Made by a program: the position numbers and the translations under genes | The notes under the pieces: model-generated | Seen by the model: only the letters and a program-made list of their open reading frames with translations | What the model was told of the DNA's origin: nothing | Databases searched by the model: none | Shown: positions 6,702-27,471 of the stretch, piece by piece | Layout: the number at the start of each line of letters is the position of its first letter | How positions within the stretch are numbered: the stretch's first letter is position 1 | Virus record (IMG/VR): IMGVR_UViG_3300010231_000003 | Location: 1 to 64,000 of that record | DNA: 64,000 nt | Source of the DNA: a virus | Strand: one strand, 5' to 3'

Positions 6702-6706
6702 TCTTT

Positions 6707-6781: not shown

Positions 6782-6788
6782 ATTATGT

Positions 6789-6865: not shown

Positions 6866-6875
6866 CTAGAATTCT

Positions 6876-6951: not shown

Positions 6952-7054
6952 ATCGATGTGGTTCCTTTTCACCACCAAGCCATGTACAGTTAGCACCATC
7001 ACGCCGTTCTTTAGCAAGGTAGCGCTCCCTGCTCAATATACGGCCAACCTATTC

Positions 7055-7150
7055 TGGCGGTGACGGGGTAGAGTCGAACTCCCAAGGCTGTATCGCTACA
7101 ACTCACACGGTTTTCAAGACCGGCACCGTCGCCCATCGGTTTGCGTCACC
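7055..7150 (-). tRNA. tRNA-Ser(UGA), long variable arm
   Basis: Perfect acceptor GGTGACG/CGTCACC, G73, CCA. Loop CTTGAAA. Long extra arm. T stem has a bulged A. 96 nt. Confidence 0.8.
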
Positions 7151-7161
7151 ATATTCTGTTT

Positions 7162-7251
7162 TGGCGGAGAATGTGCGATTCGAACGCACGGACCCCGAGC
7201 GGAGCCTACAGGTTAGCAACCTGCTGCAATCGGCCTCTCTGCCAATTCTCC
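7162..7251 (-). tRNA. tRNA-Ser(GCU), long variable arm
   Basis: Acceptor GGAGAAT/ATTCTCC, anticodon arm GCAGG TTGCTAA CCTGT, T arm GTGCG TTCGAAT CGCAC, CCA. 90 nt. Confidence 0.85.
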
Positions 7252-7256
7252 ATGTT

Positions 7257-7331
7257 TGGCACGTCATGCAGGAGTTGAACCCGCATTTCCGGGTTCGTAG
7301 CCCAGCGTACTATCCATTGTACTAACGACGT
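7257..7331 (-). tRNA. tRNA-Arg(ACG)
   Basis: Acceptor ACGTCGT/ATGACGT, anticodon arm CTGGG CTACGAA CCCGG, T arm GCGGG TTCAACT CCTGC, CCA. Confidence 0.85.
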
Positions 7332-7338
7332 ATTATCT

Positions 7339-7412
7339 TGGACGCGATAGCGAGATTTTAACTCGCCTTCGAAGCTTTGCAGGCAACTACCTAGTCACTC
7401 GGCCATATCGCG
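7339..7412 (-). tRNA. tRNA-Cys(GCA), irregular
   Basis: Perfect acceptor CGCGATA/TATCGCG, loop CTGCAAA, CCA. Two U-U mismatches in the anticodon stem and an odd T loop TTAAAAT. Confidence 0.6.
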
Positions 7413-7417
7413 GGTTC

Positions 7418-7497
7418 TGGTGGAGAACATCGGATTCGAACCGATCTGATTAGCCTACTTGCAAGGCAGGTGTCCACTCCCAGCAGACCCGTTCCCC
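7418..7497 (-). tRNA. tRNA-Ala(UGC)
   Basis: Acceptor GGGGAAC/GTTCTCC with the G3-U70 Ala identity pair, anticodon arm CCTGC CTTGCAA GTAGG, T arm ATCGG TTCGAAT CCGAT, CCA. 8-nt variable loop gives 80 nt. Confidence 0.7.
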
Positions 7498-7501
7498 ATA
7501 A

Positions 7502-7912
7502 TCAGTTTCCCGATCTGGCGTACTGCGCACGCCTCTTTTCGGGAGTATAAATTCTTTTCTTCAAAGCTGCCTTAGCCGCTTTGCAAGGATCGCATCGGCA
7601 TCCTTTTGCGTACATGGTAGTGCTGCCACATTTAGCCGTTAGCTCAGGCTTTCGCCCTGCTGCTGTATTGCAAGCTAGATGGCTGTACGCGATATTATCG
7701 AGCGAGAAAAAGTTCTTAACCGGGTCAGAGCTATCTAGCCAAGCTTCTTTGTGCTCGATTGACAGTGTTTCCCTTGTTACTTTCTCGCCGCATCGGAAAC
7801 AGGTATCTTTTCCTGCCTTTACAACGAAGTCGAACAGCAAGTCCTTGACTAGTCTGTTACTCGCAGTGCTAGGATTCATACCTAGCTGCTCTTTCATCTT
7901 TTCGATTTTCAC
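7502..7912 (-). CDS. HNH homing endonuclease inside the tRNA array
   Basis: 136 aa with CFRCGEKV..IEHKEAW..AYSHLACN (HNH-type Cys/His motif). Inserted between tRNA-Ala and tRNA-Val. Confidence 0.75.
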   Translation of the reverse strand: MKIEKMKEQLGMNPSTASNRLVKDLLFDFVVKAGKDTCFRCGEKVTRETLSIEHKEAWLDSSDPVKNFFSLDNIAYSHLACNTAAGRKPELTAKCGSTTMYAKGCRCDPCKAAKAALKKRIYTPEKRRAQYARSGN

Positions 7913-7941
7913 GACTATCCTATGATGTCTTATGTGTAATT

Positions 7942-8015
7942 TGGTACTCCCTGTAAGAATCGAACTTACGTAATCGCCGTGTAAAGACGAAGTTCTACCA
8001 TTGAACTAAAGGAGC
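7942..8015 (-). tRNA. tRNA-Val(UAC)
   Basis: D arm GTTC AATGGTA GAAC, anticodon arm TCGTC TTTACAC GGCGA, T arm GTAAG TTCGATT CTTAC, CCA. Confidence 0.85.
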
Positions 8016-8022
8016 ATTGTTA

Positions 8023-8098
8023 TGGTATCCCGTGCGAGACTTGAACTCGGCATTTGCGGATTGAAAGTCCACCGTCCTGACCTTTAGACGAACGAGAT
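8023..8098 (-). tRNA. tRNA-Glu(UUC)
   Basis: Acceptor ATCTCGT/ACGGGAT, anticodon arm GTGGA CTTTCAA TCCGC, T loop TTCAAGT, CCA. Confidence 0.8.
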
Positions 8099-8099
8099 A

Positions 8100-8185
8100 T
8101 GGTGCGTCGGGAAGGATTCGAACCTCCACGTTCAAGACGACCACGGGGTTACAGCCCGGTGCCCTACCGAATAGGCGTCCAACGC
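8100..8185 (-). tRNA. tRNA-Tyr(GUA), long variable arm
   Basis: Acceptor GCGTTGG/CCGACGC, loop CTGTAAC, extra arm, T arm GGAGG TTCGAAT CCTTC, CCA. 86 nt. Confidence 0.85.
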
Positions 8186-8195
8186 ATTGTTTGTT

Positions 8196-8271
8196 TGGTG
8201 CAGAAGGATGGTATCGAACCATCATCTCCGATTTTTCAGACCGGCGCTAAGACCTCATCAGCTACTTCTGC
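8196..8271 (-). tRNA. tRNA-Phe(GAA)
   Basis: Perfect acceptor GCAGAAG/CTTCTGC, anticodon arm CCGGT CTGAAAA ATCGG, T arm GATGG TTCGATA CCATC, CCA. Confidence 0.85.
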
Positions 8272-8272
8272 A

Positions 8273-8346
8273 TGGTGTGACGCTGGGTTTCAATCCCGAT
8301 CCCTTAGTTTCACAGACTAAGATGCTCTCATTACACTATCGTCACC
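8273..8346 (-). tRNA. tRNA-His(GUG)
   Basis: Extra 5' G (G-1) before the acceptor, anticodon arm TTAGT CTGTGAA ACTAA, CCA. T loop ATTGAAA is atypical. Confidence 0.75.
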
Positions 8347-8352
8347 ATTGTT

Positions 8353-8430
8353 TGGTGGGAGCACTGGGACTTGAACCCAGAACCTATCGGTTAAAAGCCG
8401 AGTGCTCTAAACCAATTGAGCTATACTCCC
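8353..8430 (-). tRNA. tRNA-Lys(UUU)
   Basis: Acceptor GGGAGTA/TGCTCCC, D arm GCTC..GAGC, loop CTTTTAA, T arm CTGGG TTCAAGT CCCAG, CCA. Confidence 0.85.
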
Positions 8431-8431
8431 G

Positions 8432-8509
8432 TGGTACGCAAGGTGGGATTCGAACCCACAAGACGACAGGGTTTGAGCCTGCGGCGTATGCCGGTTCCGC
8501 CACTCACGC
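8432..8509 (-). tRNA. tRNA-Leu(CAA) with a short variable loop
   Basis: Anticodon arm GCAGG CTCAAAC CCTGT, T arm GTGGG TTCGAAT CCCAC, A73, CCA. Acceptor has three G-U pairs. Variable region is only 6 nt, which is unusual for bacterial-type Leu. Confidence 0.6.
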
Positions 8510-8614
8510 ATTGTAAATGAGGGTGCTCTGTCCACTGAGCTACCGAACGGGCTATTAACCACTACCGGGACGGATTCGAACCGTCGTCTCCCTACGCTCG
8601 TTACTACTGCTGTT
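8510..8614 (-). pseudogene. two tRNA fragments: a 3' half followed by an unrelated 5' half
   Basis: 8614-8566 carries a T arm plus acceptor strand (GACGG TTCGAAT CCGTC CCGGTAG). 8555-8512 carries an acceptor strand, a canonical D arm and the loop ATTTACA (CGTTCGG TA GCTCAGTGGACAGAGC A CCCTC ATTTACA). The acceptor strands do not pair and neither piece folds into a full cloverleaf. Confidence 0.4.
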
Positions 8615-8696
8615 TGGTAGGCAAGGAGAGATTCGAACTCTCAAAAGCCCTGCTTCTAAGGCAGGTAGGTGTACCGTTCCCATTAGCCACTCGCCC
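8615..8696 (-). tRNA. tRNA-Leu(UAG) with a short variable loop
   Basis: Perfect anticodon arm CCTGC CTTAGAA GCAGG, T arm GAGAG TTCGAAT CTCTC, A73, CCA. 22-nt D region and a 6-nt variable loop. Confidence 0.65.
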
Positions 8697-8849
8697 AAAT
8701 TCTTGCTACCATTTCTGTCAGGTTGGTAGCGACCTGTCCTTGTCGGGATTTCCCTGCCCTGCACGGGCCGAGACTGTTTGACGAGAGGCGTAGTTACACG
8801 GACTGGACACCGCCTGATAGGCTTCTCTTTCCTACGATTGTCGTCAACT

Positions 8850-8923
8850 TGGAGCGGGGTGCGAGAATCGAACTCGCCTCATTAGCTTGGAAGGCTAAGG
8901 CACAGCCACTATACCAAACCCGC
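8850..8923 (-). tRNA. tRNA-Gly(UCC)
   Basis: Anticodon arm TTAGC CTTCCAA GCTAA, T arm GCGAG TTCGATT CTCGC, acceptor GCGGGTT/ACCCCGC, CCA. Confidence 0.85.
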
Positions 8924-8930
8924 ATTGTTC

Positions 8931-9005
8931 TGGCGACTCTAGGGAGAATTGAACTCCCGTGCTCGGATCGACAATCCGGCGTAATAACCACTATACGATA
9001 GAGCC
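8931..9005 (-). tRNA. tRNA-Asp(GUC)
   Basis: Acceptor GGCTCTA/TAGAGTC, loop TTGTCGA, T arm GGGAG TTCAATT CTCCC, G73, CCA. Confidence 0.85.
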
Positions 9006-9007
9006 AT

Positions 9008-9292
9008 TTATTTAATCAGCTTCCGTACCAGACGGAAGTTGTTTGCTACCACTACGACGTACACTGCGCACAGTGCCGCGAGGATAGCAGGCAGTTGCAT
9101 CAGGAACGCATACGCCAGAGCCAGCACTACCAGCTTCGGCAGGATGAGCCCTGCTACCGTTCCTACCTTCTCGATCATAAAACGCATGACAGGGTTCGCC
9201 TCGTGTGCTACACTGGCATCTAGCAAGCGTTTCGTGGAGTACACGTCGCACATCTGGAGCACACACAGGGCTACAAACAAAATGATTGACAT
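9008..9292 (-). CDS. small multi-pass membrane protein embedded in the tRNA array
   Basis: Start at ATG 9292 (MSIILFVALCVLQMCDVYST..) after aaggagagaag. 94 aa with 3 hydrophobic segments. Confidence 0.65.
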   Translation of the reverse strand: MSIILFVALCVLQMCDVYSTKRLLDASVAHEANPVMRFMIEKVGTVAGLILPKLVVLALAYAFLMQLPAILAALCAVYVVVVANNFRLVRKLIK

Positions 9293-9309
9293 CTTCTCTC
9301 CTTTATTCT

Positions 9310-9396
9310 TGGCTGGCAAGGCTGGCTTCGAACCAGCAAGTGCATTTCTGCGCCTGATTAACAGTCAGGTAGGTCTACCAATTCCCCCACATGCCA
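9310..9396 (-). tRNA. tRNA-Asn(GUU) with a Leu-like body and long variable arm
   Basis: Perfect anticodon arm CCTGA CTGTTAA TCAGG, G73, CCA. D arm GGGGAATTGGTAGACC and a 15-nt extra arm (GCA GAAA TGC) resemble class II Leu tRNAs. 87 nt. Confidence 0.65.
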
Positions 9397-9398
9397 AT

Positions 9399-9472
9399 TG
9401 GTTGCGGATGCCAGAGTCGAACTGGACCTCCGGGTTATGAGCCCATAGTGCTTACCGTTACACCACACCGCA
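9399..9472 (-). tRNA. tRNA-Met(CAU)
   Basis: Loop CTCATAA above three G-C pairs (an initiator-like feature), T loop TTCGACT, CCA. The base of the acceptor stem is imperfect. Confidence 0.7.
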
Positions 9473-9572
9473 ATTGTACGACAGTTCTGTTTCTCGGCCG
9501 TCTTCGCCTCAGTGACTTATGATTTCGTCACGCCGCTTCTGCGATTGCTCTGCTACAGCGACAAGTACCAAC

Positions 9573-9601
9573 ATAATAACATACGTAGTGCTACTTGTCA
9601 A
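9573..9601 (-). promoter_or_regulatory. sigma70-type promoter inside the tRNA array
   Basis: Minus strand reads TTGACA-agtagcactacgtatgt(17)-TATTAT, between tRNA-Pro and tRNA-Met. Confidence 0.65.
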
Positions 9602-9625
9602 GCTTTGCGCTTACGCGCTGAATTC

Positions 9626-9701
9626 TGGTCTGGGTGGGTGGGATCGAACCACCGGCCTCAAGCTTCCAAAGCTCGCCGTCTACCGCTGACATTACACCCA
9701 G
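9626..9701 (-). tRNA. tRNA-Pro(UGG)
   Basis: Perfect acceptor CTGGGTG/CACCCAG (C1-G72), anticodon arm CGAGC TTTGGAA GCTTG, T arm GGTGG TTCGATC CCACC, CCA. Confidence 0.85.
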
Positions 9702-9702
9702 A

Positions 9703-9778
9703 TGGTGCCCCCGGCAGGAATCGAACCCGCGACCTTCGGATTACAAATCCGCTGCTCTACCTGCTGAGCTACAAGGGC
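9703..9778 (-). tRNA. tRNA-Thr(UGU)
   Basis: D arm GCTC AGCAGGTA GAGC, loop TTTGTAA, T arm GCGGG TTCGATT CCTGC, CCA. Confidence 0.85.
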
Positions 9779-10089
9779 AAACTTCTCCATGCATACCATC
9801 CAAGTTGCTGCGATGTGTGTACTGCGTGGCAATTTGCACATAGTACACGGCACTTAGCTATCTCGTCAAGTAGCACTTGCTTCTTAACACCAGCCGACAC
9901 AAGGGATGAAACCTTTGCCATCTTATCTCTAACGTGGTCGAGTTGGAGACAAGCTACTCGCGTTTCACCGCAGACTTCACACGGGTTGCGCTCGTAGTGC
10001 TGGTAAATTATTTCTCGCAGCGCGTTCCTGCGCTTTTCTCGCGCTACCGCTGCTGCTTCTTTGTTACGTACTTTCAAAACTACCTCCAA
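9769..10089 (-). CDS. HNH endonuclease (endonuclease VII-like)
   Basis: CEVCGE..LQLDHV..VLCANCH motif. Only TTG starts are available (10089 or 10077, the latter after GGAGG). The 3' end overlaps the tRNA-Thr 5' end by 10 nt. Confidence 0.65.
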   Translation of the reverse strand: MEVVLKVRNKEAAAVAREKRRNALREIIYQHYERNPCEVCGETRVACLQLDHVRDKMAKVSSLVSAGVKKQVLLDEIAKCRVLCANCHAVHTSQQLGWYAWRSLPL

Positions 10090-10423
10090 GACTAGGTTAA
10101 CTTACCAAGCGTTCTCCTTGGATCGGAGTTAGCCCTAATCTTGCTTGTTAGTCCCGCTTACTTTTACGGGGCCGGAACCACCCGGCAGCTTGGCAACCAA
10201 CCAAGGAGAAGACAAAGTTGAACAACGGAAGAGTAGTCGCCTACGAAGACACTGGAGCAATCCGTAGCGCTTCGTTTCGGGGACGGTAACTTCGCCAAGA
10301 CCCTGCAACGCTGGGTCTATCGAGATAGGATCAACCTCCTTTCGGAAATTAAATCAAGTGGCGACTACTCAAATCATGGAAGCAGCGTGGTAAAATCTGC
10401 TTCGGAATCTCTTACGTACTGCT

Positions 10424-10452
10424 ATCTTACACTACGGAGCCTTATTTGTCAA
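10424..10452 (-). promoter_or_regulatory. sigma70-type promoter driving a 330-nt leader plus the HNH gene
   Basis: Minus strand reads TTGACA-aataaggctccgtagtg(17)-TAAGAT, overlapping the stop codon of the upstream gene. Confidence 0.6.
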
Positions 10453-10987
10453 GTTTTTGCTCAATTGGCCTTGACTTGCCCCACCACTCTAGGTTAGAGA
10501 CATGATTATTCGTCACGTCTTTGTCCTTGTGGCGTACGTTGCGACGGTTCTCCGGGTTAGGGAGCCACGCCAGTGCGACAGCACGGTGGAGGGTAAGCAT
10601 CGAGCTACCACCGCCTACGTACATATACTGCTTCTTCGAAGCCTTCAGCCACTTGCTATGCAGGTGCGACCATACACGGCCATCCTGCGTCACTTCCCAT
10701 TTTCCTTCGAAGCCGGGGACCGGGCGGGTATCCGACTCTGCGAACTCCGCTACGAGGGCTGCACGAGCCTTGCGACGGGCTTCCGTAGCTTCTACTACGT
10801 CCTTTCCTACCTTCGAGATGCGTTTATCGCGCTTCAGTGTCTTGCGAACGAGACGAAGTTGCTCCACAATGTCCGTACGGCCGTTGGCTGTGTACGTCTT
10901 GATGGCGATGTGAAGAGCCTGCCGAGAAATTCCCTTGGCTCGTTCTACTGCTTCGTCCAAGGTTAGCTCTTTCCAGCTCTTGGCCAT
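10442..10987 (-). CDS. HNH_3/NUMOD-type homing endonuclease with an N-terminal HTH
   Basis: WEVTQDGRVWSH..LHRAVALAWLPNPENRRNVRHKDKDVTNNHVSNLEWW. Start moved to ATG 10987 after ccaaggaaaccaac. Confidence 0.7.
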   Translation of the reverse strand: MAKSWKELTLDEAVERAKGISRQALHIAIKTYTANGRTDIVEQLRLVRKTLKRDKRISKVGKDVVEATEARRKARAALVAEFAESDTRPVPGFEGKWEVTQDGRVWSHLHSKWLKASKKQYMYVGGGSSMLTLHRAVALAWLPNPENRRNVRHKDKDVTNNHVSNLEWWGKSRPIEQKLDK

Positions 10988-11010
10988 GTTGGTTTCCTTG
11001 GTAATATTGG

Positions 11011-11349
11011 TCATACTTCTTGAATTGTATGCATGTCGAGTCGTGGAGCACTGGGCTTCTTATCTTCGTCGCCGGGAATCAACGGGGTCTTCGGACCAGT
11101 TGCCCTCATCTCTGCGATGAGACGGTTCAGTTCGTCCTTGTTGATCTGGTCGGTGATACGAATCTGTAGGTCGATGATCGCCTCTGCCAGCTTCAAACGC
11201 TCCTTCAGTGGAACGTTCTCTTCGTCTTCCATCTTACTCGCCATCAGATCGATTGCAGCGGGCGTAATCCTTCCTAGCTGCTTGGCAAGGTCTGCCAACT
11301 CGTGCTTCTTCTTTACGAACATTTGGCCTTCCCTTAGTACTACTGCCAT
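11011..11349 (-). CDS. hypothetical protein
   Basis: Start at ATG 11349 (MAVVLREGQMF..) after caggagtatagc, downstream of a consensus promoter. Confidence 0.65.
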   Translation of the reverse strand: MAVVLREGQMFVKKKHELADLAKQLGRITPAAIDLMASKMEDEENVPLKERLKLAEAIIDLQIRITDQINKDELNRLIAEMRATGPKTPLIPGDEDKKPSAPRLDMHTIQEV

Positions 11350-11370
11350 GCTATACTCCTGAAAGTTCTT

Positions 11371-11399
11371 ATTATATACTAGGTAGTGGTGTTTGTCAA
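11371..11399 (-). promoter_or_regulatory. consensus sigma70 promoter (leftward)
   Basis: Minus strand reads TTGACA-aacaccactacctagta(17)-TATAAT. Confidence 0.75.
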
Positions 11400-11556
11400 C
11401 TTTACGTATCACTGCTTATATATTATTCATATATAACATATGTTATATAACTACTATATAGAATATTTATAACCCTTCCTATTGACTTTCCCTTCAGGAA
11501 AGTCTTACGCTAGCGTACTACTATATATAAACCTCGCTCCCTGCGGTCGCTCGGTT

Positions 11557-12708: not shown

Positions 12709-13377
12709 ATGAAAAAGCTCATCGGATATACCCGCGTCTCCCACAAAGAACAGGGCAAGACGAAGAACGGTCTGGAAGCGCAAGCGGAGGCAATCCGCTT
12801 GTTCGCTCACTACAACGGGTACGAACTCGTTGAAATCGTTCAGGAAGTCCGTACGGGCGCTGACAATGAGCGTCCTGTACTGGCTGAAATCACGAAGCGT
12901 GCCGCAAAGATCGGTGCATACGTCGTCGTGAACAAGCTGGACCGTCTGTCCCGCGATGCCCTGTTCATACTCCAGTACGTCAAGACCAATCCCCGCTTCA
13001 TCGTCACGATGTTGGGCGAAGGCGTTGACCCGTTCATGCTTCACATCTACGCCGGTTTGGCGGAGAAAGAGCGGGCGATGATTTCTGAGCGTACCCGTGC
13101 AGCCCTTCAGGCTAAACGCGCACGTGGCGAAACGTTGGGGGCCAAGGAATCGGTTCGCGTGAAGGCTACCGCCGCATCGCACGTGTCGATGAAGGCGCAG
13201 TCTGACGCATTCGCGGATCGCGTCAAGCCGATGATCCAGCGTATGATCCTCGCCGGGATGTCTTACCGTGCGATGGCCTCTGAGCTAAATGCGCTGAACG
13301 TCAAAACGGCTCGTGGAGGCGAGTGGCATGCTATGACGGTGAGGAACATCGTGGAACGCTTTAAGGAGGTCGCATGA
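12709..13377 (+). CDS. small serine recombinase (resolvase/invertase family)
   Basis: N-terminal IGYTRVSHKEQ catalytic-serine motif, ..VVVNKLDRLSRD.., and a C-terminal HTH-like tail. 222 aa. Confidence 0.85.
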   Translation: MKKLIGYTRVSHKEQGKTKNGLEAQAEAIRLFAHYNGYELVEIVQEVRTGADNERPVLAEITKRAAKIGAYVVVNKLDRLSRDALFILQYVKTNPRFIVTMLGEGVDPFMLHIYAGLAEKERAMISERTRAALQAKRARGETLGAKESVRVKATAASHVSMKAQSDAFADRVKPMIQRMILAGMSYRAMASELNALNVKTARGGEWHAMTVRNIVERFKEVA

Positions 13378-13613
13378 AATTCGCTATAGTCGCTGCTGTT
13401 GTCGTCGCAATGGCATTCTGGATCGCCATGCAACACACGGGCATCCCGCGTGACTTGTTCAACGCTGCGGTGCTGCTAATGTTTTGCCCGGACACTAACC
13501 CGCTGAGCCCTAGCTGCGGCGAAGTCACGTTAGATTTCGTTCTGCGGAGGGTGTTCTGGACCGCTACGGCCGTTCTCGTGCTGGTGACGGTATGGAGGGC
13601 GCCGCGAGATTAA
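13374..13613 (+). CDS. small membrane protein
   Basis: 79 aa, hydrophobic, ATGA overlap with the recombinase stop. Confidence 0.6.
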   Translation: MKFAIVAAVVVAMAFWIAMQHTGIPRDLFNAAVLLMFCPDTNPLSPSCGEVTLDFVLRRVFWTATAVLVLVTVWRAPRD

Positions 13614-13681
13614 AAGCGCCGCAGGCGGGCCGCAAAAATTTTTTAACGCCGGGAGTCCCGGCATCAACCAAGGAGAAGAAA

Positions 13682-14215
13682 ATGACCAGCTATGAATACG
13701 ATCTGACCATCACCATGACCTCGGGCTTCGCGTTGGGGGCTCACGCAGGCCAGAAACGCAAATACACGGGCGAGGACTACTACCATCACCCGAAACGCGT
13801 CGCTGAAATCCTCAACCAGCACGGCCACAAAGACATCGTGACGCTTCAAGCGGCTCTGCTGCACGACACGGTGGAGGACACGCACGTCACGCACGAGCAA
13901 ATCGTTGAGTATTTCGGCAACGACGTGGCCGTCCTCGTGGGCTGGTTGACGAAAACGGAGTGGGATGCCCCGGCTCCGCCTCGTGCAGAACGCAAAGCCT
14001 TCGAAATCGCTCGCCTGAAGGACGCTCCGGTCGTCGTCAAGACGATCAAGCTGGCCGACCGCTACGACAATCTGCCGTCCGTGATCGAGCACGATCCGAA
14101 ATTCGCTCCCGTCATCGTTGCGGAGACGCGTGAGCTGCTGGACGGAGCCCTCGTCGGCGGTTGCCCGGTGCTGTGGGCGAAGCTGGACGCCATCGTGCGT
14201 GAATTTCAGCAATAA
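13682..14215 (+). CDS. HD-domain phosphohydrolase, SpoT/Mesh1-like (p)ppGpp hydrolase fold
   Basis: GAHAGQKRKYTGEDYYHHP..LHDTVEDT motif. Start at ATG 13682 after accaaggagaagaaa. Confidence 0.7.
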   Translation: MTSYEYDLTITMTSGFALGAHAGQKRKYTGEDYYHHPKRVAEILNQHGHKDIVTLQAALLHDTVEDTHVTHEQIVEYFGNDVAVLVGWLTKTEWDAPAPPRAERKAFEIARLKDAPVVVKTIKLADRYDNLPSVIEHDPKFAPVIVAETRELLDGALVGGCPVLWAKLDAIVREFQQ

Positions 14216-14220
14216 AAGGC

Positions 14221-14249
14221 TTGACGCAATACGTAAGTAGCGCTACAAT
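14221..14249 (+). promoter_or_regulatory. sigma70-type promoter
   Basis: TTGACG-caatacgtaagtagcgc(17)-TACAAT, followed by the CA-rich leader. Confidence 0.65.
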
Positions 14250-14278
14250 CCTCTCTACCAACTAACCAAGGAGAACAA

Positions 14279-14656
14279 ATGAACACAATGCAACAGGAAT
14301 TCGATGCAATCGTTTTGCATCTGTACGCACAGGGCAAACCCGCGATGGAACACGGCATTTGCGCTTATCGCGGTGTTGACGGGACCAAGTGTGCGGTCGG
14401 TGCACGTATCCCGGACTCCGTATACAGCCCTGACATGGAAGGCAAAAACATGAGCTGCCTGATGGAATGCTTCGGTGACGCGCTGCCGCCTGAATTTACC
14501 GCGTACGAACCCATGTACGCTGCCGTGCAAAATGTCCACGACTACTGGGATCATCAGGGGCACAGGTCCAACGGCGTAACGTGGAACGATTGGCTGGATG
14601 TCCGGCTGGAACAAGCCGCTAAGGAACTGAATCTGACCTTCACTAAACCGCAATAA
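14279..14656 (+). CDS. hypothetical protein
   Basis: 125 aa, leader accaactaaccaaggagaacaa. Confidence 0.7.
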   Translation: MNTMQQEFDAIVLHLYAQGKPAMEHGICAYRGVDGTKCAVGARIPDSVYSPDMEGKNMSCLMECFGDALPPEFTAYEPMYAAVQNVHDYWDHQGHRSNGVTWNDWLDVRLEQAAKELNLTFTKPQ

Positions 14657-14666
14657 GGAGAACAAA

Positions 14667-15875
14667 ATGCAAGAACGTACCACTGCGAAGCAAGTAATTT
14701 ACGAAGAAGGCTCCCGTCCGATCAAAATCTGGACGAATGACATCGAGCCGGAAGCGCTGACGCAGCTCAAGAACCTGTCCCGCCTGCCGTTCATCGCGAA
14801 AGAAGGCGTTGCCTGTATGCCGGATGTCCACGCAGGCATCGGAAGCACCGTTGGCACGGTGATTGCGACGGACAGGGCTGTCATCCCGGCCGCTGTCGGC
14901 GTCGATATCGGCTGTGGCATGGTCGCTACCCGTCTGTCGCTGAAGGCACACCAGTTGCCGGACTCGCTGGCACGCATCCGCAGCGAAATCGAACGTGTTG
15001 TACCGATGGGCACGGGCGGCGAGCACAAGGATGACCGCACCATCGCCTTCCGTGCAAGCCGTCTGAACGATTCCGCCCCGGATCAGGTTTCCCGTATCGT
15101 TGGCGATCACTACCTGAAGAAAGCGGCTGGACAGCTCGGCACGCTCGGCTCCGGCAACCACTTCATCGAAATTTGTATCGACCAGAACGACGACGTGTGG
15201 GTCATGCTGCACTCCGGCTCCCGTGGCATCGGCAACATGATCGGTAAGTACTACATCGAGAAGGGCAAGGAGCTGATGAACCAGTTCCACATTACCCTGC
15301 CGGATGGCGATCTGGCGTACCTGCCTGAAGGTACGGACCTGTTCGAAGACTACGTAGCTGCTGTCCAGTGGGCGCAGGACTACGCGATGGAGAACCGCAA
15401 GGCGATGCTGCAAGCCGTGCTGGATGTGCTCCGCAAGGAGATTCCGATCCAGTTCGGCATCACGGAAGAAGCAATCAACTGCCACCACAACTACGTTACG
15501 AAGGAGAACCACTTTGGAAAGAACCTCTGGATCACACGAAAGGGAGCCATCAAGGCCGGAAAAGACGACCTCGGAATCATCCCCGGAAGCATGGGCCAGC
15601 GTTCTTATATCGTGCGAGGGAAAGGAAACAAGGAATCGTATTGTTCGTGTTCTCACGGAGCGGGGCGTAAGATGTCTCGTTCCGCCGCCCGAAAGAAGTT
15701 CACCCTCGCTGACCTCGCCGCTCAGACCGCAGGAGTGGAATGCCGAAAGGACGACGCCGTACTGGATGAAATTCCGGGCTCGTACAAGGACATCGACGTG
15801 GTGATGGACAACCAGAAATCGCTCGTGGAAGTGGTTCACGTCCTGAAGCAAGTGATGTGCTGTAAAGGGGCGTAA
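14667..15875 (+). CDS. rtcB: RtcB RNA 3'-phosphate ligase
   Basis: 402 aa with GSGNHFIE, HSGSRGIG, CHHNY and a C-terminal ..HVLKQV.. region, matching the RtcB signature. Confidence 0.9.
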   Translation: MQERTTAKQVIYEEGSRPIKIWTNDIEPEALTQLKNLSRLPFIAKEGVACMPDVHAGIGSTVGTVIATDRAVIPAAVGVDIGCGMVATRLSLKAHQLPDSLARIRSEIERVVPMGTGGEHKDDRTIAFRASRLNDSAPDQVSRIVGDHYLKKAAGQLGTLGSGNHFIEICIDQNDDVWVMLHSGSRGIGNMIGKYYIEKGKELMNQFHITLPDGDLAYLPEGTDLFEDYVAAVQWAQDYAMENRKAMLQAVLDVLRKEIPIQFGITEEAINCHHNYVTKENHFGKNLWITRKGAIKAGKDDLGIIPGSMGQRSYIVRGKGNKESYCSCSHGAGRKMSRSAARKKFTLADLAAQTAGVECRKDDAVLDEIPGSYKDIDVVMDNQKSLVEVVHVLKQVMCCKGA

Positions 15876-16329: not shown

Positions 16330-16548
16330 ATGGAAAAACTTGTAAGGCTCACGAAGGCTCTGATTTACGCAGTAGCACTTCTTACGTTGCTCGCCGTCGT
16401 GTTGCCGATTGCGGTCTGGACGAAAGGGCTGTTCATCATAGCCATCGTATTCGGCGTGTTCGTGTGGGCGATCTACACAATGCTGGAGCGCCGCGACTGG
16501 CACAGGAATTGGCGGCAACGTGCGGCGGACTGGAGAAACTACAAATGA
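16330..16548 (+). CDS. small membrane protein
   Basis: 72 aa, two hydrophobic helices, RBS gaaggagag. Confidence 0.6.
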   Translation: MEKLVRLTKALIYAVALLTLLAVVLPIAVWTKGLFIIAIVFGVFVWAIYTMLERRDWHRNWRQRAADWRNYK

Positions 16549-16712
16549 ACGGGCTACCTTACAAGGATACGTTCGCTGCGAAGGGTAGCGAACTCTACCG
16601 TGCACTGACGGAAGGCCCGGAGAAAGACCGGGCGAAAGCAGCTAAGGCTGTCTACGATGCAACCACCGAGCGTATGTATGCTCTGCTGAAGCCGAAGGAG
16701 AAAGTATCATGA
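16545..16712 (+). CDS. hypothetical small protein
   Basis: Start moved to ATG 16545 (MNGLPYKD..) after ggagaaactacaa. ATGA coupling to the upstream gene. Confidence 0.5.
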   Translation: MNGLPYKDTFAAKGSELYRALTEGPEKDRAKAAKAVYDATTERMYALLKPKEKVS

Positions 16713-17017
16713 CGAATTACAAATTCGAGGTAGGACAGAGGGTAGAGATTCACGGTTTGCCCGAGTTCTGTACGGACGCCATCTACAACGGCATGCAGGG
16801 TATGATCGTATCGCTCCCCGGCTTCCATCCTCGTGCGAAGACGGCCTACGCTGTGCTGATCGACAACGTAGGTATCGAGGCAGCAATCGATATGTACCTC
16901 CGTCCCGCTCCGCCGAAGGGCCGGAAGGACTACGACAACGTGACCTCGTGGGCTGAGTTCGACGCCCTGACAGGGGTGAAGAGCATCACGTTCCGTCGCT
17001 CCAATCTGGATTATTGA
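16709..17017 (+). CDS. hypothetical protein
   Basis: 102 aa, RBS gaaggagaaag. Confidence 0.65.
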   Translation: MTNYKFEVGQRVEIHGLPEFCTDAIYNGMQGMIVSLPGFHPRAKTAYAVLIDNVGIEAAIDMYLRPAPPKGRKDYDNVTSWAEFDALTGVKSITFRRSNLDY

Positions 17018-17018
17018 C

Positions 17019-17219
17019 ATGGCACAGGAAAAGGAGAAGTACGAATACATCGCTCACTCCTTCGACCTTCGTGTCGGAGGGAAGCAATACTGCGACGGCT
17101 GCGGACTAGTCGGACTGAACAACCCGTTCACCGACTGGGCTATCAGAATGGGATGCTTGCACCGTCTTCACCCTTCGTACGATAACAAACGCTACGACCT
17201 TACCAAAATCTTTGACTGA
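17019..17219 (+). CDS. hypothetical Cys-containing small protein
   Basis: 66 aa with CDGCG; last gene of the rightward unit. Confidence 0.5.
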   Translation: MAQEKEKYEYIAHSFDLRVGGKQYCDGCGLVGLNNPFTDWAIRMGCLHRLHPSYDNKRYDLTKIFD

Positions 17220-17415
17220 AAGGAAACATATGATAGCCTCCCTATTGGCTCGCCTTCGCGAGCTGTTCAGGAACGACCGAATGCCGCCTACAGGCATGGC
17301 TCCTGCTTGAGCCCGCTCAAGATGTACCGGCCCATTGGGCCTAATATTCAATTGCCCGTTCCATCCGGGCGTTCCATCTGGGGCTCACGCCGACCTCGTA
17401 CTGATGGAACCTTTC

Positions 17416-17444
17416 GCCCCGCCTCGTGCGGGGCTTTTCTTTTC
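17416..17444 (+). terminator. rho-independent terminator
   Basis: GCCCCGC-ctcgt-GCGGGGC followed by TTTTCTTTT. Confidence 0.7.
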
Positions 17445-17542
17445 GCCTATGGCGTGATAGATTGAATGCTCTTCGGGATTTGCTACCCCGCATGTACGGC
17501 CTCGCCTCCTTTCTGTCACTTTGCCTAACGTGGCCGTAGAAA

Positions 17543-17580
17543 CCCCTCCCAGACCCTCCCGCTGGGCGGGGTTTTCTTTT
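17543..17580 (+). terminator. second rho-independent terminator
   Basis: CCCCTCCCAG..CTGGGCGGGG followed by TTTTCTTTT. Confidence 0.6.
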
Positions 17581-18854
17581 ATCCGGACAGGATATACCGC
17601 ATAGCGCCGTTGGCGTCATATTATCTGCACGTAAGTGCTTGATTTTAAAAAATTTTTCCATACTCAGCCATTGGCTGCATACCCTTTCCGCCCGCCAGAA
17701 ATTTTATCAACGCTATTACCGAAACTTTTCTAGCATTTCTCCTATGAAACGTGTTAAAAAATTTTTCTAAAACAGGGCCATTTTCGACACGTTTTGGGAC
17801 ATGTTGGGAAACATCGTTTTAGCTCAAGAGCGGGAGGGTGGCTTAACCGCTCGCCGTGGCCTTGGGCATGGCCCGCTAAGGGCACAGAAATATCATAGGA
17901 GAGGCCGTCAGGGGATGGACAGGGCAAACCATGCCCAATGGGCCGGACGCCTCCTAGACCCCTTAAAACGCGTCTATGCCCCTGTGTATAAAATGCAGAC
18001 GGACGTTTGCCCCGTATACAGGGGCGTATGGATGAGGAATCGTATCCGTGCCAATGGCACAGGAATGCCCCTAGGGCTCGTGTATAGGGCCGCTATAGGG
18101 CGATTGGACGTGTGGACGTGGGGTACACAGGGGACGTACTGCAAACGCGTCCTAGCTCGTTTAAAGAGTTATGTGTTTGGCCTATGGCCTAATGCATATC
18201 TATGCTGTTTGATGGGGGCCAGTGGCCCGGATACGCAAGTTTCATGCCAAGAAAGAAGAGTTAGCAATGCTGGCGAGCTTAACCAGCCCGCCCGCCTGTG
18301 TCATTGGATACAGTTATGAGACGCTATAGTGCCATTGGCACGGCGTATATGTGCCCCTGTACCCCTGTTATTAACAATGTGTATGGACTGTATGTTGTGC
18401 CATTGGCACGTGAATAACTGACCCCATAGGGGCCATATGCTGTATGTGAATGATGTATGAGAACGTTATTATTTGACGTTATATAGTGCCAATGGCACGA
18501 CGTATGTACATGGGCCTATGGCCCGGACAGTACGTTAGCGGATTGGCCCGTAAGGGGGCCAATGGAGGAAAGGGCAGGAGATGGGCCAAAGGCCCGGTAG
18601 ATATGTGTTGTGCCTATGGCACTATAGTACGCTATATGCTTTGCAGCATAACACTGTTGTATGTACGTGCCACAGGAAGCGATTAGAGCCGTTTAAACGG
18701 TGCGGGGTATGCCAGCGTACCAACAAGGGGCCATTCGTTGAGCCTAGGCCCGTTCTGATGCGTCCTAGGGCCATTGGCCCATGTAGCACTACGTACAGGT
18801 ACGGCAGACAGGTGTATGTGAGTGGTCAAGTACAGATACGTGAGTAATCAAGTA

Positions 18855-18884
18855 TTGACTAAAAGAAATGACCCCATATAGGGG
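18855..18884 (-). terminator. terminator at the end of the leftward small-gene block
   Basis: Minus strand reads CCCCTATATGGGG followed by tcaTTTCTTTT. Confidence 0.5.
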
Positions 18885-18894
18885 CCGTCTCGTG

Positions 18895-19050
18895 TCACGC
18901 ATCAGGATGCGGATACTGGGAAACATCACGGGCCAGATCGATAAGCCGTTTTGCTTGATCGTTTGTCAGTCCGCTATGCTCGGCGTATTTCTCGATAGTG
19001 AGGTAATTATTGACGTAATCGAGATACGCGTTAATCAGAATGTCCCTCAT
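18895..19050 (-). CDS. hypothetical small protein (51 aa)
   Basis: Not in the ORF track (under 60 aa). MRDILINAYLDYVNNYLTIEKYAEHSGL.. after aaggatgaattgaa. Abuts the upstream stop. Confidence 0.5.
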   Translation of the reverse strand: MRDILINAYLDYVNNYLTIEKYAEHSGLTNDQAKRLIDLARDVSQYPHPDA

Positions 19051-19051
19051 T

Positions 19052-19291
19052 TCAATTCATCCTTTCTTTGATATAGATACGCTGGCCGGAAATGTCGCAA
19101 GCGGCCGACCATGCGTTATAAACATGTTCCCCTATACGTCCGGGCTGTTCGTAGCGGATACCGAAATGATCGCAGCGCATTTCTGTGCAGAATGCATCCA
19201 GCGCTTGCCCCGGCGTTATGGCGTCAAGCGTTGCTGTAGTTTTCAAACGGTTAGCTTTACCGTGATAAAGCACGAATTCAAATTGACGCAT
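19052..19291 (-). CDS. hypothetical protein
   Basis: 79 aa, tightly packed in the leftward block. Confidence 0.6.
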   Translation of the reverse strand: MRQFEFVLYHGKANRLKTTATLDAITPGQALDAFCTEMRCDHFGIRYEQPGRIGEHVYNAWSAACDISGQRIYIKERMN

Positions 19292-19292
19292 A

Positions 19293-19538
19293 TTATTCCT
19301 CTTCGTTGAACTGGCTTACAAACGCGTCCACTTTCGATTGCAGCGTTTTATATTCGCTTTCAACTTTGGTTAAGCGGTTTTGGTAATAGGTCAATGCTTC
19401 TACAAAAGCGGCGTCAGATGTTTTTGCACGCATCGATAGATTCATGCCCCGCGTTTTATCCCATAACCAATAACCGTCACGGCACAGCGAAAGGGTTAAT
19501 GTAGGGGATAACACGGTGGAAGAAATGGCCTTACTCAT
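19293..19538 (-). CDS. hypothetical protein
   Basis: 81 aa, coiled-coil-like C-terminus. Confidence 0.6.
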   Translation of the reverse strand: MSKAISSTVLSPTLTLSLCRDGYWLWDKTRGMNLSMRAKTSDAAFVEALTYYQNRLTKVESEYKTLQSKVDAFVSQFNEEE

Positions 19539-26005: not shown

Positions 26006-26914
26006 TCCCGGCATTCCCTCCGCTTACGCTTCCCGGCATCTTGTGGCACGGGCTCGATAGTCGAGCGTCAATTGTATTTCGTAGGTTGTTAAAGAGCGAA
26101 CTTCCCGGCATCCTCATCCTTGCCTTGCCTGTGCTATCCATCTAGCGGCGTCCGCCACTTCGCACAGGGTAAGCGCCTATGGCTTTGCCCCGTCTCCTTA
26201 GTAGCGTTCTGTACTAAGGAGACTCCATTCTAATGACTCTTCAGGGTATGCGCAATACCCCGCGCAAAATAATTTGTAACAGAGATGCGACACGTGCCGG
26301 ATGCCCAAAAGGAGAAATGCGCCCGCGTGGCGTGCACATGCGTACGCGCACGCGTAGCAAGAACCGTGCCAAGGCCGATTTTCGCATACTGTGTTTTTAT
26401 ACAGTAAAACGCCGTAGAGCCGTTTTTCGGGGTAGGTTGATATGCCGGGATAGGTTGCTGTGGATAACTCAATGTACCCCCCTTAAAACGCGTTTAAACG
26501 GTATGCCATTGTGGATAACTTTTGCCCAAAATCATGCCTTTTCGTGGGCTCGCATGTAAATCGACCTGTTTATTTCTGTAAAATCTACATAAAAATCGCG
26601 TCACAATGGCCGAGTTATCCACAGGCGATTTTGTGTTTTCCCTTTAAAATCAACTACTTGAGTCTTATATAAGAGCACATTTCAGTCTTATATAAGATAT
26701 AGGACTACTCTTATATAAGAGTGCTACATGAGCAACATTTGTTTCTCTCGCTACATCATGGCACGGCGATTGCATAGGCAAGTAGTGTGCCAGCTAGCAC
26801 TACATACCAAACGGCCGGATAGATAGCGCTACGAAACGTTACAGGGTATGCCGGATACCATTCAACATTTGGGCACGGGCTGATACAGTGGGCAATCTGG
26901 CATCCATGCCGGGA
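26006..26914. repeat. TCCCGGCAT iteron-like 9-mers (three direct, two inverted, one degenerate)
   Basis: Perfect copies at 26006, 26031 and 26103 (direct) and at 26442 and 26906 (inverted). A one-mismatch copy lies at 26848. Confidence 0.7.
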
Positions 26915-27248
26915 CAGTAGGCGTTACTTATGGGCAAGTGTGCCCATTGGCCGACTATTGCCGAAAGGAAAAGTATTGCTAGGATGCTAACACTACCTAT
27001 GCCACGTGTTTTGCTATCGATTCCACGCTATCGATAGGATTCGTTGTTTGCTATGGGTTCTTACCAATCGATAGGCTATAGCGATTCCCTATCAGCCGGG
27101 ACCATATGATGGGCGTTTGGCTATCGATTGTGGATAACCTGTCACCGGAGCAACATTGTGGCCGAACGACCGTGCTTTTTGACAAGTTATCCACAGAACG
27201 GGCGTGCTTTTCCGTGGTTATCCACAGGTTATCCACATTTTGTCCACA
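26459..27248. other. putative replication origin: two DnaA-box clusters flanking AT-rich palindromes
   Basis: Perfect TTATCCACA/TGTGGATAA boxes at 26459, 26510, 26615, 27129, 27187, 27218 and 27229, plus TTGTCCACA at 27240. Three CTCTTATATAAGAG-type palindromes lie at 26661-26721, and there are four CTATCGAT repeats at 27013-27128. Confidence 0.7.
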
Positions 27249-27339
27249 AAAAGTACTTTTGAGCAACTTTTCTGCTGCGATGCACCATTTCGGGCAGTTC
27301 CGGGGCAGAGGACGGGGTTTCCTTTTTAAGAAGAGACTC

Positions 27340-27462
27340 AAAAATTCCCCAGTCCCTGTGGAAAATCTGACTTTTGAAATCCAGATCGAATTCCGAAAAT
27401 CTTTCCCAAATGAAAACGCCCCAGCACAGGCCGGGGCGAAATTTTTGCGGAAATTTTTACGG
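27340..27462. repeat. copy A of the duplicated regulatory segment
   Basis: aaaaattccccagtccctgtggaaaatctgacttttgaaatccagatcgaattccgaaaatct.. aligns with 30007-30131. The match is strong over about 65 bp and weaker beyond. Confidence 0.7.
27412..27446. terminator. bidirectional terminator
   Basis: CGCCCC-agcacagg-CCGGGGCG flanked by an A run and a T run. Follows the stop of the 27472 gene on the minus strand. Confidence 0.6.
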
Positions 27463-27471
27463 CGGGGGCCG

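Follow-up and report, generated by a model that had tools for sequence, protein, structure and literature searches.

Positions 1 to 64,000 of the viral record IMGVR_UViG_3300010231_000003, the whole stretch of DNA analysed here and referred to below as the window, include a gap between two converging operons (17220-18890) that is populated by short palindromes of the form GCC-N3-GGC. We suggest that the part of this gap from 17630 to 18890 is a non-coding, cis-acting DNA module, conserved across a clade of phages, which may serve as an architectural hub; we put the probability of this reading a little short of even, at roughly 0.45. By analogy with known repeats, the array appears best described as a cluster of palindromes resembling repetitive extragenic palindromic (REP) sequences and bacterial interspersed mosaic elements (BIMEs), joined to a core of IHF and DnaA-box sites, and laid out much like the injection-stop-signal (iss) region of phage T5, while by the tests applied it is a member of neither family.

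The palindromes are concentrated in one locus

Across the window GCC-N3-GGC occurs 35 times: 14 copies lie within 17220-18890 and 21 in the other 62 kb. This gives a density of ~8.4 per kb in the gap as against 0.34 per kb elsewhere, the latter being about what base composition would lead one to expect. Extended forms are found nowhere else: all five window copies of GTGCC-N3-GGCAC (18048, 18329, 18397, 18486 and 18610) and all four of GGGCC-N3-GGCCC (18216, 18512, 18583 and 18768) belong to the gap. When only perfect 13-bp palindromes are counted (5-bp arms, 3-bp centre) the gap contains 12, compared with 1.6 in mononucleotide shuffles, and all perfect 13-mers of the window sit in a single 1.3-kb locus. 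Elsewhere in the window no copy of the motif was found at promoters. Many of the palindromes are paired, with 24-28 bp from centre to centre.

The array was initially recognised in a preliminary description of this DNA, and the counts bear out its view that the array is real, non-random and specific to the locus: the motif is enriched in the gap relative to shuffled controls and stays near the level of base composition in the rest of the window. Several details can be refined. Most of the positions first assigned to the sites hold, with 18396, 18511 and 18582 off by one (correctly 18397, 18512 and 18583). The GGGCC-N3-GGCCC class is confirmed at 18216, 18512, 18583 and 18768, whereas its supposed member at 17329 is a GCCC-N3-GGGC variant; likewise, among the sites described as weaker, 17665 and 18179 are real and 17933 is a GCCC-N3-GGGC variant. 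The two variants together form a 14-nt inverted-repeat pair. The longer flank said to be shared by three copies is indeed present, as two direct copies of TATAGTGCC (18325 and 18482) and one inverted copy (18622). Two points concern extent. The array is missing from the left 400 bp (17220-17600), which holds two plus-strand terminators; an A/T-rich patch follows at 17650-17800 (33-40% GC), and then the dyad-rich body at 17850-18800. And CCCCATATAGGGG at 18870, listed as an additional dyad, is the minus-strand terminator of the right-hand operon. In relatives this terminator retains AAAAGAAATG and the stem, and in most of them the T-run is on the minus-strand side.

The element is conserved at a fixed position

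Relatives of the source phage were obtained in two ways: five IMG/VR loci came from a search anchored on RtcB, and ten further genomes (85-92 kb) from protein searches and contig look-ups. Counts of core motifs, DnaA boxes and strand composition given below refer to a set of 15 relatives (15 gaps), and the analysis of palindrome covariation to nine aligned elements.

All five of the RtcB-anchored relatives carry the same array downstream of RtcB. In each of the ten further genomes a gene-free gap of 1.3-1.9 kb is present at the same convergent junction, downstream of an operon encoding a resolvase, an HD_4-domain protein and RtcB. Nine elements can be aligned over ~1.3 kb, and every one of them contains a palindrome cluster. 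The preliminary description had proposed looking for the same array in related phages, and there it is. Of the element, distant relatives retain parts only, chiefly the 5′ core.

Conservation of the whole is accompanied by rapid change in its parts. Between the window and its relative L001 the element is 68% identical at the nucleotide level, compared with 79-88% in the neighbouring genes; the copy number and positions of the palindromes also shift quickly between relatives. The locus L003 (21 kb around RtcB, 75% identical) contains no GCC-N3-GGC and no large gap immediately after the homologue of the 66-aa gene, although a diverged element elsewhere was not searched for. In Nitrincola phage 1M3-16, the best cultured match to the upstream 66-aa gene, no comparable element was found at that gene. 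When metagenomes were scanned with a conserved 23-nt pattern the L001 contig was the only match, and none of 185,579 reference genomes contains the conserved dyad-pair module.

Two contigs of one metagenome (the end of L002 and the start of L072) overlap by exactly 127 nt inside the element, at about window position 17930-18050. The assembly graph branched at this point, which more likely reflects variation between strains in the array than the physical end of a genome. A genome terminus at the element was considered and finds no support: the break resembles such a branch, and contigs of other relatives break at unrelated places.

Complementarity of the arms is under selection

Our description of the arms draws on 114 distinct GCC-N3-GGC sites taken from the nine aligned elements. 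The bases at ±5 form a Watson-Crick pair in 102 of these (GC 39, TA 33, CG 19, AT 11); the 12 others are unpaired, and none is G·U. At ±6 pairing is seen in 74 of 114 sites, mostly as GC and TA, and from ±7 to ±9 it stands at ~29-37%, which is the background level. The arms covary with a score of 0.252, compared with 0.130 in shuffles; none of 500 shuffles reached the observed score. Among orthologous aligned sites a single cell in 51 is non-Watson-Crick at ±5, and four of eight such sites display two or more types of Watson-Crick pair, that is, compensatory double changes. The combination of free choice of base pair with strict complementarity indicates selection on the pairing of arm with arm rather than on half-sites read by a dimer. 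This speaks against the earlier suggestion of a landing pad, made of one dyad, for a dimeric protein: the outer two arm positions differ between sites and between orthologues and are still complementary.

The centre is ATT, AAT, TAT or ATA in 63 of the 85 sites of the first six elements; TAA and TTA are absent. Each loop is as frequent as its complement (TAT 17, ATA 16, ATT 15, AAT 15), so that there is no strand bias, and among single-mismatch variants G·T is not in excess over A·C. The lack of G·U, the balance of the loops and the sharp limit at 5 bp together favour a constraint at the level of DNA over RNA hairpins. As far as the alignments can tell, the arm constraint argues for a hairpin, a cruciform or strict duplex symmetry in DNA.

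Relatives contain further palindromes: GTTCC-ATA-GGAAC, GTCCC-ATA-GGGAC, GCCCC-GTA-GGGGC and ATGGC-GTA-GCCAT, of which ATGGC-GTA-GCCAT and GTTCC-ATA-GGAAC are found in distant ones. The general form NNN-CC-WWW-GG-N'N'N' fits most of the types in these relatives, with the exception of ATGGC-GTA-GCCAT.

The 5′ core carries IHF-consensus and DnaA-box-like sites

The left boundary of the conserved element is a putative IHF site. Its consensus is found at the same aligned place in nine elements, with the four N positions varying, and is inverted in L086. Because the consensus is kept while the N4 stretch varies, and because of the inversion in L086, the upstream TTGATT motif is better read as part of an IHF site than as a −35 box. 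The upstream TTGATTTTA was also considered as a phage promoter consensus and rejected: it is not repeated at other operon starts, and IHF fits better. The window as a whole contains seven matches to the IHF consensus where 1.3 would be expected. Four of them are at junctions or coding deserts (17632, 26648, 29460 and 29579), the last two at the point where the minus-strand early block and the replication genes of the plus strand diverge.

To the right of the IHF site two motifs, CTTAAC and RAAATATC, are 38-39 nt apart in all 15 relatives, the intervening sequence being unrelated. Next in order come TAAACGCGT and the DnaA-box-like TGTGTATAA, which is kept in 9 of 15 gaps. Four relatives (L017, J, L063 and L083) have two boxes, TGTGTATAA followed 51 nt downstream by a perfect TGTGGATAA; L006 has the perfect TGTGGATAA box only, its first box reading TGTGTACAA. 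A core hairpin presenting the conserved GGGTGGCTTAAC in its loop had been proposed by eye. It was not retained: RNAalifold gave no consensus for it, pairing reached 55.6% compared with 50.3% in shuffles, and it did no better than slid controls. Table 1 lists the features of the gap with their positions.

Table 1. Features of the gap between the converging operons, in window coordinates.
Feature	Position	Strand	Remarks
Intrinsic terminator 1 of left operon	17416-17443	+	7-bp all-GC stem GCCCCGC/GCGGGGC, then TTTTCTTTTC; outside the array
Intrinsic terminator 2 of left operon	17557-17580	+	TCCCGCTGGGCGGGG, then TTTTCTTTTA
Putative IHF consensus site TAAGTGCTTGATT with adjacent A/T tract	17632-17660	-	Matches YAANNNNTTGATW; left boundary of the conserved element
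Palindrome CAGCCATTGGCTG	17665-17677		Just right of the IHF site; TCGCCAATGGCGA at the orthologous place in 6 relatives
Conserved core: GGGTGGCTTAAC + 39 variable nt + GAAATATC	17836-17894		CTTAAC at 17842-17847; GAAATATC at 17887-17894
CCCCTTAAAACGCGT, then DnaA-box-like TGTGTATAA	17959-17991		CCCCTTAAAACGCGT at 17959-17973; TGTGTATAA at 17983-17991, a relaxed DnaA box
Decayed second DnaA box TGAGGAATC	18033-18041		Several relatives have a perfect TGTGGATAA here
Palindrome GTGCCAATGGCAC	18048-18060		Orthologues AGGCC..GGCCC and GGGCC..GGCCC: compensatory change
Palindrome TGGCCTATGGCCT	18178-18190		T·T mismatch at ±6; identical in 5 relatives
Palindrome GGGCCAGTGGCCC	18216-18228		L017 orthologue GAGCCAATGGCTC: G:C to A:T change
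Palindrome GTGCCATTGGCAC with TATAG flank	18329-18341		±5 in aligned orthologues: TA in 4, GC in 1
Palindrome GTGCCATTGGCAC	18397-18409		From motif count
Palindrome GTGCCAATGGCAC with TATAG flank	18486-18498		From motif count, repeat search and orthologue alignment
Palindrome GGGCCTATGGCCC	18512-18524		26 bp centre to centre from the 18486 copy; orthologues GC in 3, TA in 1, AT in 1
Most conserved module: GGGCCAAAGGCCC + 14-nt spacer + GTGCCTATGGCAC	18583-18622		GTGCCTATGGCAC at 18610-18622; in 9 of 9 aligned elements, 27 bp apart
Palindrome GGGCCATTGGCCC	18768-18780		From motif count
Intrinsic terminator of right operon, dyad CCCCATATAGGGG	18870-18886	-	Closes the element on the right; outside the array

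Neither a protein nor a folded RNA family is evident in the gap

Two open reading frames (ORFs) of 172 aa (17801-18319) and 106 aa had been dismissed as spurious in the preliminary description, and comparison with relatives upholds this. Neither is conserved, the alignments show frequent indels in the 172-aa frame, and no ORF in the gap is kept among the relatives compared; the longest ORFs in the L001 equivalent are ~60 aa. A protein-coding reading was therefore rejected, and the stretch is probably, as had been proposed, a nucleic-acid element rather than the source of a protein.

The idea that the palindromes encode a set of hairpin RNAs, offered at the same time as an alternative, gained no support from the lack of G·U at ±5, the balanced loops or the two RNA analyses that follow. 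Rfam returned nothing credible in 16500-19500 even at E up to 1, the few weak hits being at chance level; within the window tRNAs are the only families above threshold. RNAalifold, applied to the alignment of nine elements, found 65 conserved pairs in 1373 columns with similar scores for the two strands (−30.5 and −28.1). A large, globally folded RNA is not supported, given the few consensus pairs and the likeness of the strands. The small RNAs published for PAK_P3-type phages (~100 nt) come from other contexts and are not comparable.

The source phage and its second non-coding region

The source phage is uncultured and tRNA-rich, with a genome of ~90 kb. Proteins encoded in the window include a Mu-type portal, a T4-type large terminase, a T7-type primase-helicase, a UvrD-type helicase, a family A DNA polymerase and DNA ligase, together with RtcB, an RNA ligase, a small serine recombinase, ribonucleotide reductase and NAD-salvage genes. 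The large terminase is nearest to those of KPP10/PAK_P-type Pseudomonas myoviruses, at an identity of only ~42%. No cultured phage is close at the DNA level: the region found no match in the phage collection in either near or distant search modes, and with 20 kb of context the sole DNA match was 92 bp in RtcB. At least 21 tRNAs are present in the window. The total is probably about 23, as the Rfam tRNA model adds 6710-6781 and 7342-7412, both unlisted by ARAGORN; two others, 7055-7150 (Ser) and 7418-7497 (Ala), were reported by ARAGORN and are absent from the Rfam table.

To the left of the gap a plus-strand operon (serine recombinase, HD protein, RtcB and small ORFs) ends at 17219; to its right a minus-strand block of small genes extends from 18895 onward, and the two converge on the gap. 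The skew profile tracks the direction of transcription and gives no informative switch at the gap. Within the left operon, 12709-15875 encodes the small serine recombinase (222 aa, resolvase/invertase type), the HD_4-domain protein and RtcB. The resolvase is found in nine of ten relatives from the Logan, JGI and NCBI collections (L082-L091); in the tenth, L088, the contig begins inside this string of genes. The phage that carries it is apparently lytic. The gene adjoining the element on the right (18895-19050, minus strand) encodes a 51-aa protein that looks helix-turn-helix-like by eye and matches only PHROG families of unknown function; it is not kept beside the element in the relatives examined. 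No ParA/ParB-like (partition) or initiator-like domain was detected in the flanking genes tested.

Two relatives (L085, 2977-4359; L090, 2006-3388) have a TROVE (Ro60-like) gene between the terminase and the tRNA block, a place occupied in the window by a 553-aa ORF (3725-5386, minus strand) without a family match. TROVE, RtcB, RNA ligase and tRNAs together suggest an RNA-repair or Y-RNA-type module.

The early block on the minus strand contains a second coding desert, at ~26150-27470, with seven perfect DnaA boxes (26459, 26510, 26615, 27129, 27187, 27218 and 27229) where ~0.5 would be expected in 64 kb. A match to the IHF consensus is also present, at 26648, along with GCTATCGAT repeats and three copies of the palindrome TCTTATATAAGA. 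This desert has two features in common with the palindrome element: the 51-nt spacing of boxes and the 15-mer CCCCTTAAAACGCGT, which recurs at 26479-26493 beside perfect DnaA boxes. The region is also found in relatives J, L086 and L091, and is likely a DnaA-dependent origin or a site that titrates DnaA. Judged by its boxes, the cluster at 26.4-27.4 kb would be a better candidate for an origin than the palindrome element. Between them the two regions bracket ~8 kb of small early-type genes, including one for an anti-restriction protein.

A possible hub at the convergent junction

In the model that we favour the terminators would seal the module off from both converging operons. Its 5′ core would offer predicted sites for host factors, one matching the IHF consensus and one or two resembling DnaA boxes, and its body would be a fast-evolving cluster of REP-like 13-bp perfect palindromes with the form NN-GCC-WWW-GGC-N'N'. 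We infer that these act as DNA, either as hairpins and cruciforms that can be extruded or as strictly symmetric duplex sites, and that they might be recognised by their shape and CC-WWW-GG centre rather than by the sequence of the arms. With IHF, and perhaps DnaA, the palindromes could then make the convergent junction into a hub of an architectural or topological kind. Candidates for the DNA transaction that such a hub would serve are supercoil relief, replication, genome entry and packaging. Analogy lends the model some plausibility: BIME clusters situated downstream of convergent genes in bacteria recruit IHF and gyrase, and region 3 of T5 combines palindromes with DnaA boxes. A more specific version, which we think rather unlikely, holds that REP/BIME-type hairpins and IHF/DnaA sites were domesticated by a lytic phage clade into a cis module, that this module and the DnaA region 8 kb away bracket genes for early host takeover, and that it controls stepwise genome entry, supercoil relief or the capture of DnaA, IHF and gyrase.

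A number of observations weigh against the hub. Compensatory change, as read from the alignments, proves selection of a pairing type and cannot on its own tell DNA from RNA; the lack of G·U at ±5 would be only a moderate argument, resting as it does on 12 unpaired cells. For a cruciform to be extruded from duplex DNA, arms of 5 bp are short. Within the window, the element contains just one relaxed DnaA box, and the stronger cluster at 26.4-27.4 kb means that a replication role for the element is not needed. Of the two external models, homology to T5 was rejected at both the protein and the DNA level, leaving only the architecture alike, and so was identity with canonical REPs, the window having no GTAG tag and neither it nor the phage loci an associated transposase. 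Finally, three features would also fit a plus-strand transcript. In each of the 15 gaps G is mildly in excess of C on the plus strand; in 11 of 15 relatives that strand gives the more stable fold of the 5′ core; and an internal insert of ~45 nt (TTGACT, 17 nt, TACCCT, with TG just upstream) resembles a sigma-70 promoter pointing rightward. This insert is present in L017, J, L006 and L086 and as a variant in L082 (alignment columns ~855-900), and absent from the window (near 18420), L001, L083 and L088.

These last three features are the reason for keeping an RNA product as the main rival, though not as the best reading. It would consist of one or more plus-strand non-coding RNAs in which the palindromes are RNA hairpins, serving an RNA-binding protein as a sponge or scaffold, or making up a multi-hairpin precursor that is processed. 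A phage rich in RNA-repair genes (RtcB, RNA ligase and tRNAs, with Ro60 in relatives) would be a fitting source, and the covariation of the arms, the fixed 38-39 nt between the two core motifs and the terminators insulating both sides are all in keeping with it. We nevertheless consider it unlikely. The Rfam search was empty, RNAalifold gave few pairs and treated the strands alike, and the core hairpin was unsupported; no G·U is seen at ±5 and the loops have no strand bias; the upstream ‘promoter’ is better taken as an IHF site and is inverted in L086; and the T-run of the 3′ hairpin is on the minus side in most relatives. Hairpins may also belong to a replication element, a secondary origin or a zone for loading the primosome, where IHF and DnaA would open the DNA and hairpins in the single strand would recruit primase or helicase. 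Single-strand initiation signals of the hairpin type, including hairpins with DnaA boxes, are known from plasmids and phages, and the element provides an IHF consensus, DnaA-box-like sequences, the A/T patch of 33-40% GC at 17650-17800, selection for pairing at the DNA level, and the 15-mer and 51-nt box spacing that it has in common with the 26.4-27.4 kb cluster. Yet one relaxed box here compares with seven perfect ones there, no initiator gene is adjacent, the skew is without an informative switch, and the phage has its own T7-type primase-helicase and family A polymerase, a system in which DnaA is not normally needed. We regard this function as distinctly improbable.

Two further explanations dispense with hairpin function in the phage. 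The repeats could be selfish or neutral REP-like sequences that spread within a tolerant, pre-existing gap, possibly by the action of a host enzyme of the REP-associated tyrosine transposase (RAYT) type on single-stranded phage DNA, and so have no purpose for the phage. The fast turnover of copy number and positions and the low identity of the element relative to its flanks (68% against 79-88%) are what such spread might produce; distant relatives have other types of palindrome, the same hairpin is found in arrays beside bacterial RAYT-like genes, and REPs prefer convergent junctions (PMC3733652). Against this, the arms stop sharply at 5 bp, TAG is found at just 26 of 114 sites with no GTAG in the window, no RAYT was detected in the window or the phage loci, and perfect forms of the motif are absent from the other 62 kb. 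Moreover, sites that are orthologous in nine elements and have undergone compensatory change imply long-term purifying selection, and we find the selfish explanation very doubtful. The remaining proposal, to which we attach just as little credence, is an array of duplex sites for a dimeric, sequence-specific protein: operators, a centromere or a decoy, for example of the parS/ParB or iteron/initiator kind. Here the invariant GCC-WWW-GGC core, which prefers GCCAT on at least one half and has no TAA or TTA centre, the many sites paired 24-28 bp apart, the symmetry at the DNA level and the helix-turn-helix-like neighbour (51 aa, by eye) at 18895-19050 are favourable. What it fails to accommodate is the free variation of outer arm positions that are complementary nonetheless; in addition, the small neighbouring gene is not conserved, the flanking genes tested contain no ParA/ParB-like or initiator-like domain, and the motif does not appear at promoters elsewhere in the window.

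Returning to the cis-acting DNA module, comparison of 15 genomes separates what is constrained (complementarity of the arms, the 5-bp arm length, the CC-WWW-GG centre, the IHF site and the spacing of the core motifs) from what is free (arm sequence, copy number and position). This split, drawn from natural variation, makes hypotheses of structure versus sequence directly testable. Should the element prove dispensable, it would still serve as a guide to annotation: gaps of this kind are not to be filled with spurious ORFs of 100-170 aa.

Comparison with known systems

Several known types of site were considered and set aside. The sigma-54 −24 element (TGGCAC), NtrC and MatP-type sites, mimics of CRISPR repeats and a ToxI-like antitoxin array fail on variable arms, on the lack of a second promoter element or on irregular spacing.

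Arrays of iterons and centromeres, such as the lambda ori iterons, F sopC and the KorB operators, have one shared repeat sequence and a cognate gene nearby. The element is like them in having multiple dyads in a non-coding stretch, a spacing that is often ~24 bp and, in some cases, IHF or DnaA sites in the vicinity. Unlike theirs, its arms differ between copies and are complementary all the same, and no cognate gene was found among the flanking genes tested. The promoters of the virion RNA polymerase of phage N4 are DNA hairpins with a stem of 5-7 bp and a 3-nt loop, which function in extruded form in the early region of the genome. The small sites of the element could likewise form hairpins with a 3-nt loop, and their stems vary while the structure stays. 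In contrast to N4, the window has no gene for a giant virion RNA polymerase (its largest ORF, of 838 aa, is the family A DNA polymerase), the sites are in both orientations and have no downstream genes, and there are 11-16 copies rather than a few.

Bacterial REPs offer a closer parallel. Their stems are 5-13 bp long with loops often of 2-3 nt; the units have complementary stem variants, come in both orientations, form clusters that are often 20-100 bp apart and prefer convergent junctions (PMC3733652). REPs and BIMEs have been linked to gyrase and IHF (PMC2817692, PMC3479197, PMC3733652). With arms of 4-5 bp and a 3-nt centre the phage palindromes are at the short end of the published range of stems (PMC3733652), and they too are found downstream of genes and between convergent units, clustered, in both orientations and with complementary stem changes.

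The differences are equally clear. More than 90% of REP units bear a GTAG or CGTC tag at one end, whereas TAG abuts 26 of the 114 element sites, ~10 being expected by chance; among the window sites there are four with TAG, one with CTA and none with GTAG. The phage copies are confined to one locus of the window rather than dispersed, the element is fixed at one syntenic position across the phage clade, and it also has a conserved non-palindromic core with DnaA-box-like sequences. No RAYT (an IS200-like HUH tyrosine transposase) came to light when three RAYT-like proteins were compared by tblastn with the window and the phage loci, the only match being weak (E = 0.025) and in the unrelated locus L061.

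The hairpin itself is nonetheless at home in bacteria. Two copies of GTGCC-W3-GGCAC within 8-38 bp were found at 27 loci in 185,579 genomes, where ~0.1 was estimated by chance. These loci (L094-L120) are mostly short tandem arrays with a period of 21-51 bp and up to eight copies, from many unrelated bacteria; L106 (925-1112), L112 and L113 are examples. Three of the arrays adjoin genes for IS200/RAYT-like HUH transposases, and the GTGCC-W3-GGCAC hairpin is therefore a recurrent unit of the REP type. One locus, L100 (Massilia niastensis NZ_KB908176.1, with regions of interest at 2480-2935 and 7206-8000), is a 10.7-kb contig of 50% GC encoding a serine recombinase 47% identical to that of the window. 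Its array of GTGCCAATGGCAC, GTGCCTATGGCAC, GTCCCATAGGGAC and TGGCCGTAGGCCA lies 4-5 kb from the recombinase, and it has weak profile similarity to the element. L100 may thus offer a lead to the host, as may the Burkholderiales-like homologues of RtcB, or else to some related mobile element. If the connection with REPs and BIMEs is real, hairpins of this type would be functional parts of viruses and not only repeats of bacterial genomes.

The closest counterpart in layout is found in phage T5. Large conserved non-coding regions of lytic phages have rarely been explained, and the iss of T5, cis-acting and essential, has resisted explanation for decades. This region, repeat region 3, comprises 1.2-1.7 kb of untranslated DNA and forms the right end of the terminal repeat on the left. 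It is full of palindromes, of repeats both direct and inverted, and of DnaA boxes in pairs, and it is kept among relatives while the genes around it vary (Davison, bioRxiv 10.1101/866236). T5-like phages have eight DnaA boxes in organised pairs, and DnaA boxes recur in another repeat region some kb distant (10.1101/866236). The T5 record itself annotates a 1.6-kb untranslated region of palindromes and repeats lying between terminators and a converging gene, in a position of the same kind as that of the element, and the preliminary remark that nothing in phage biology is annotated in this way has to be withdrawn. Read directly, the T5 region contains 13-bp palindromes AATGA-GAA-TCATT (5-bp arms, 3-bp centre), TAAACGCGT, TGTATAAA, DnaA-type boxes and a G-rich stretch.

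Kinship with T5 can be set aside. A profile of the nine elements run with nhmmer against T5 5500-11500 returned nothing at E up to 10, and T5 A1, A2, dmp, ORF002 and ORF003 had no tblastn match in the window or in loci L001-L091, ~26 kb of the genome lying outside the window. The source phage is not T5-like, as its terminase shows (~42% to KPP10/PAK_P-type myoviruses), and the T5 repeats are conserved in sequence where the arms of the element are variable. As for DnaA boxes, those of T5 are paired; the window element has one relaxed box, relatives have two boxes 51 nt apart, and seven perfect boxes are 8 kb away.

The architecture is nevertheless much the same. Like iss, the element is a long untranslated region of palindromes that comes after tandem plus-strand terminators and next to a converging gene, and it is kept among relatives while flanking genes vary; the DnaA-box cluster 8 kb away has its likeness in the second repeat region of T5. 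A second, unrelated clade of phages thus appears to possess a region built like T5 iss and, were the reading as a domesticated module correct, the element would be the functional counterpart, in an unrelated lineage, of the injection-stop region of T5.

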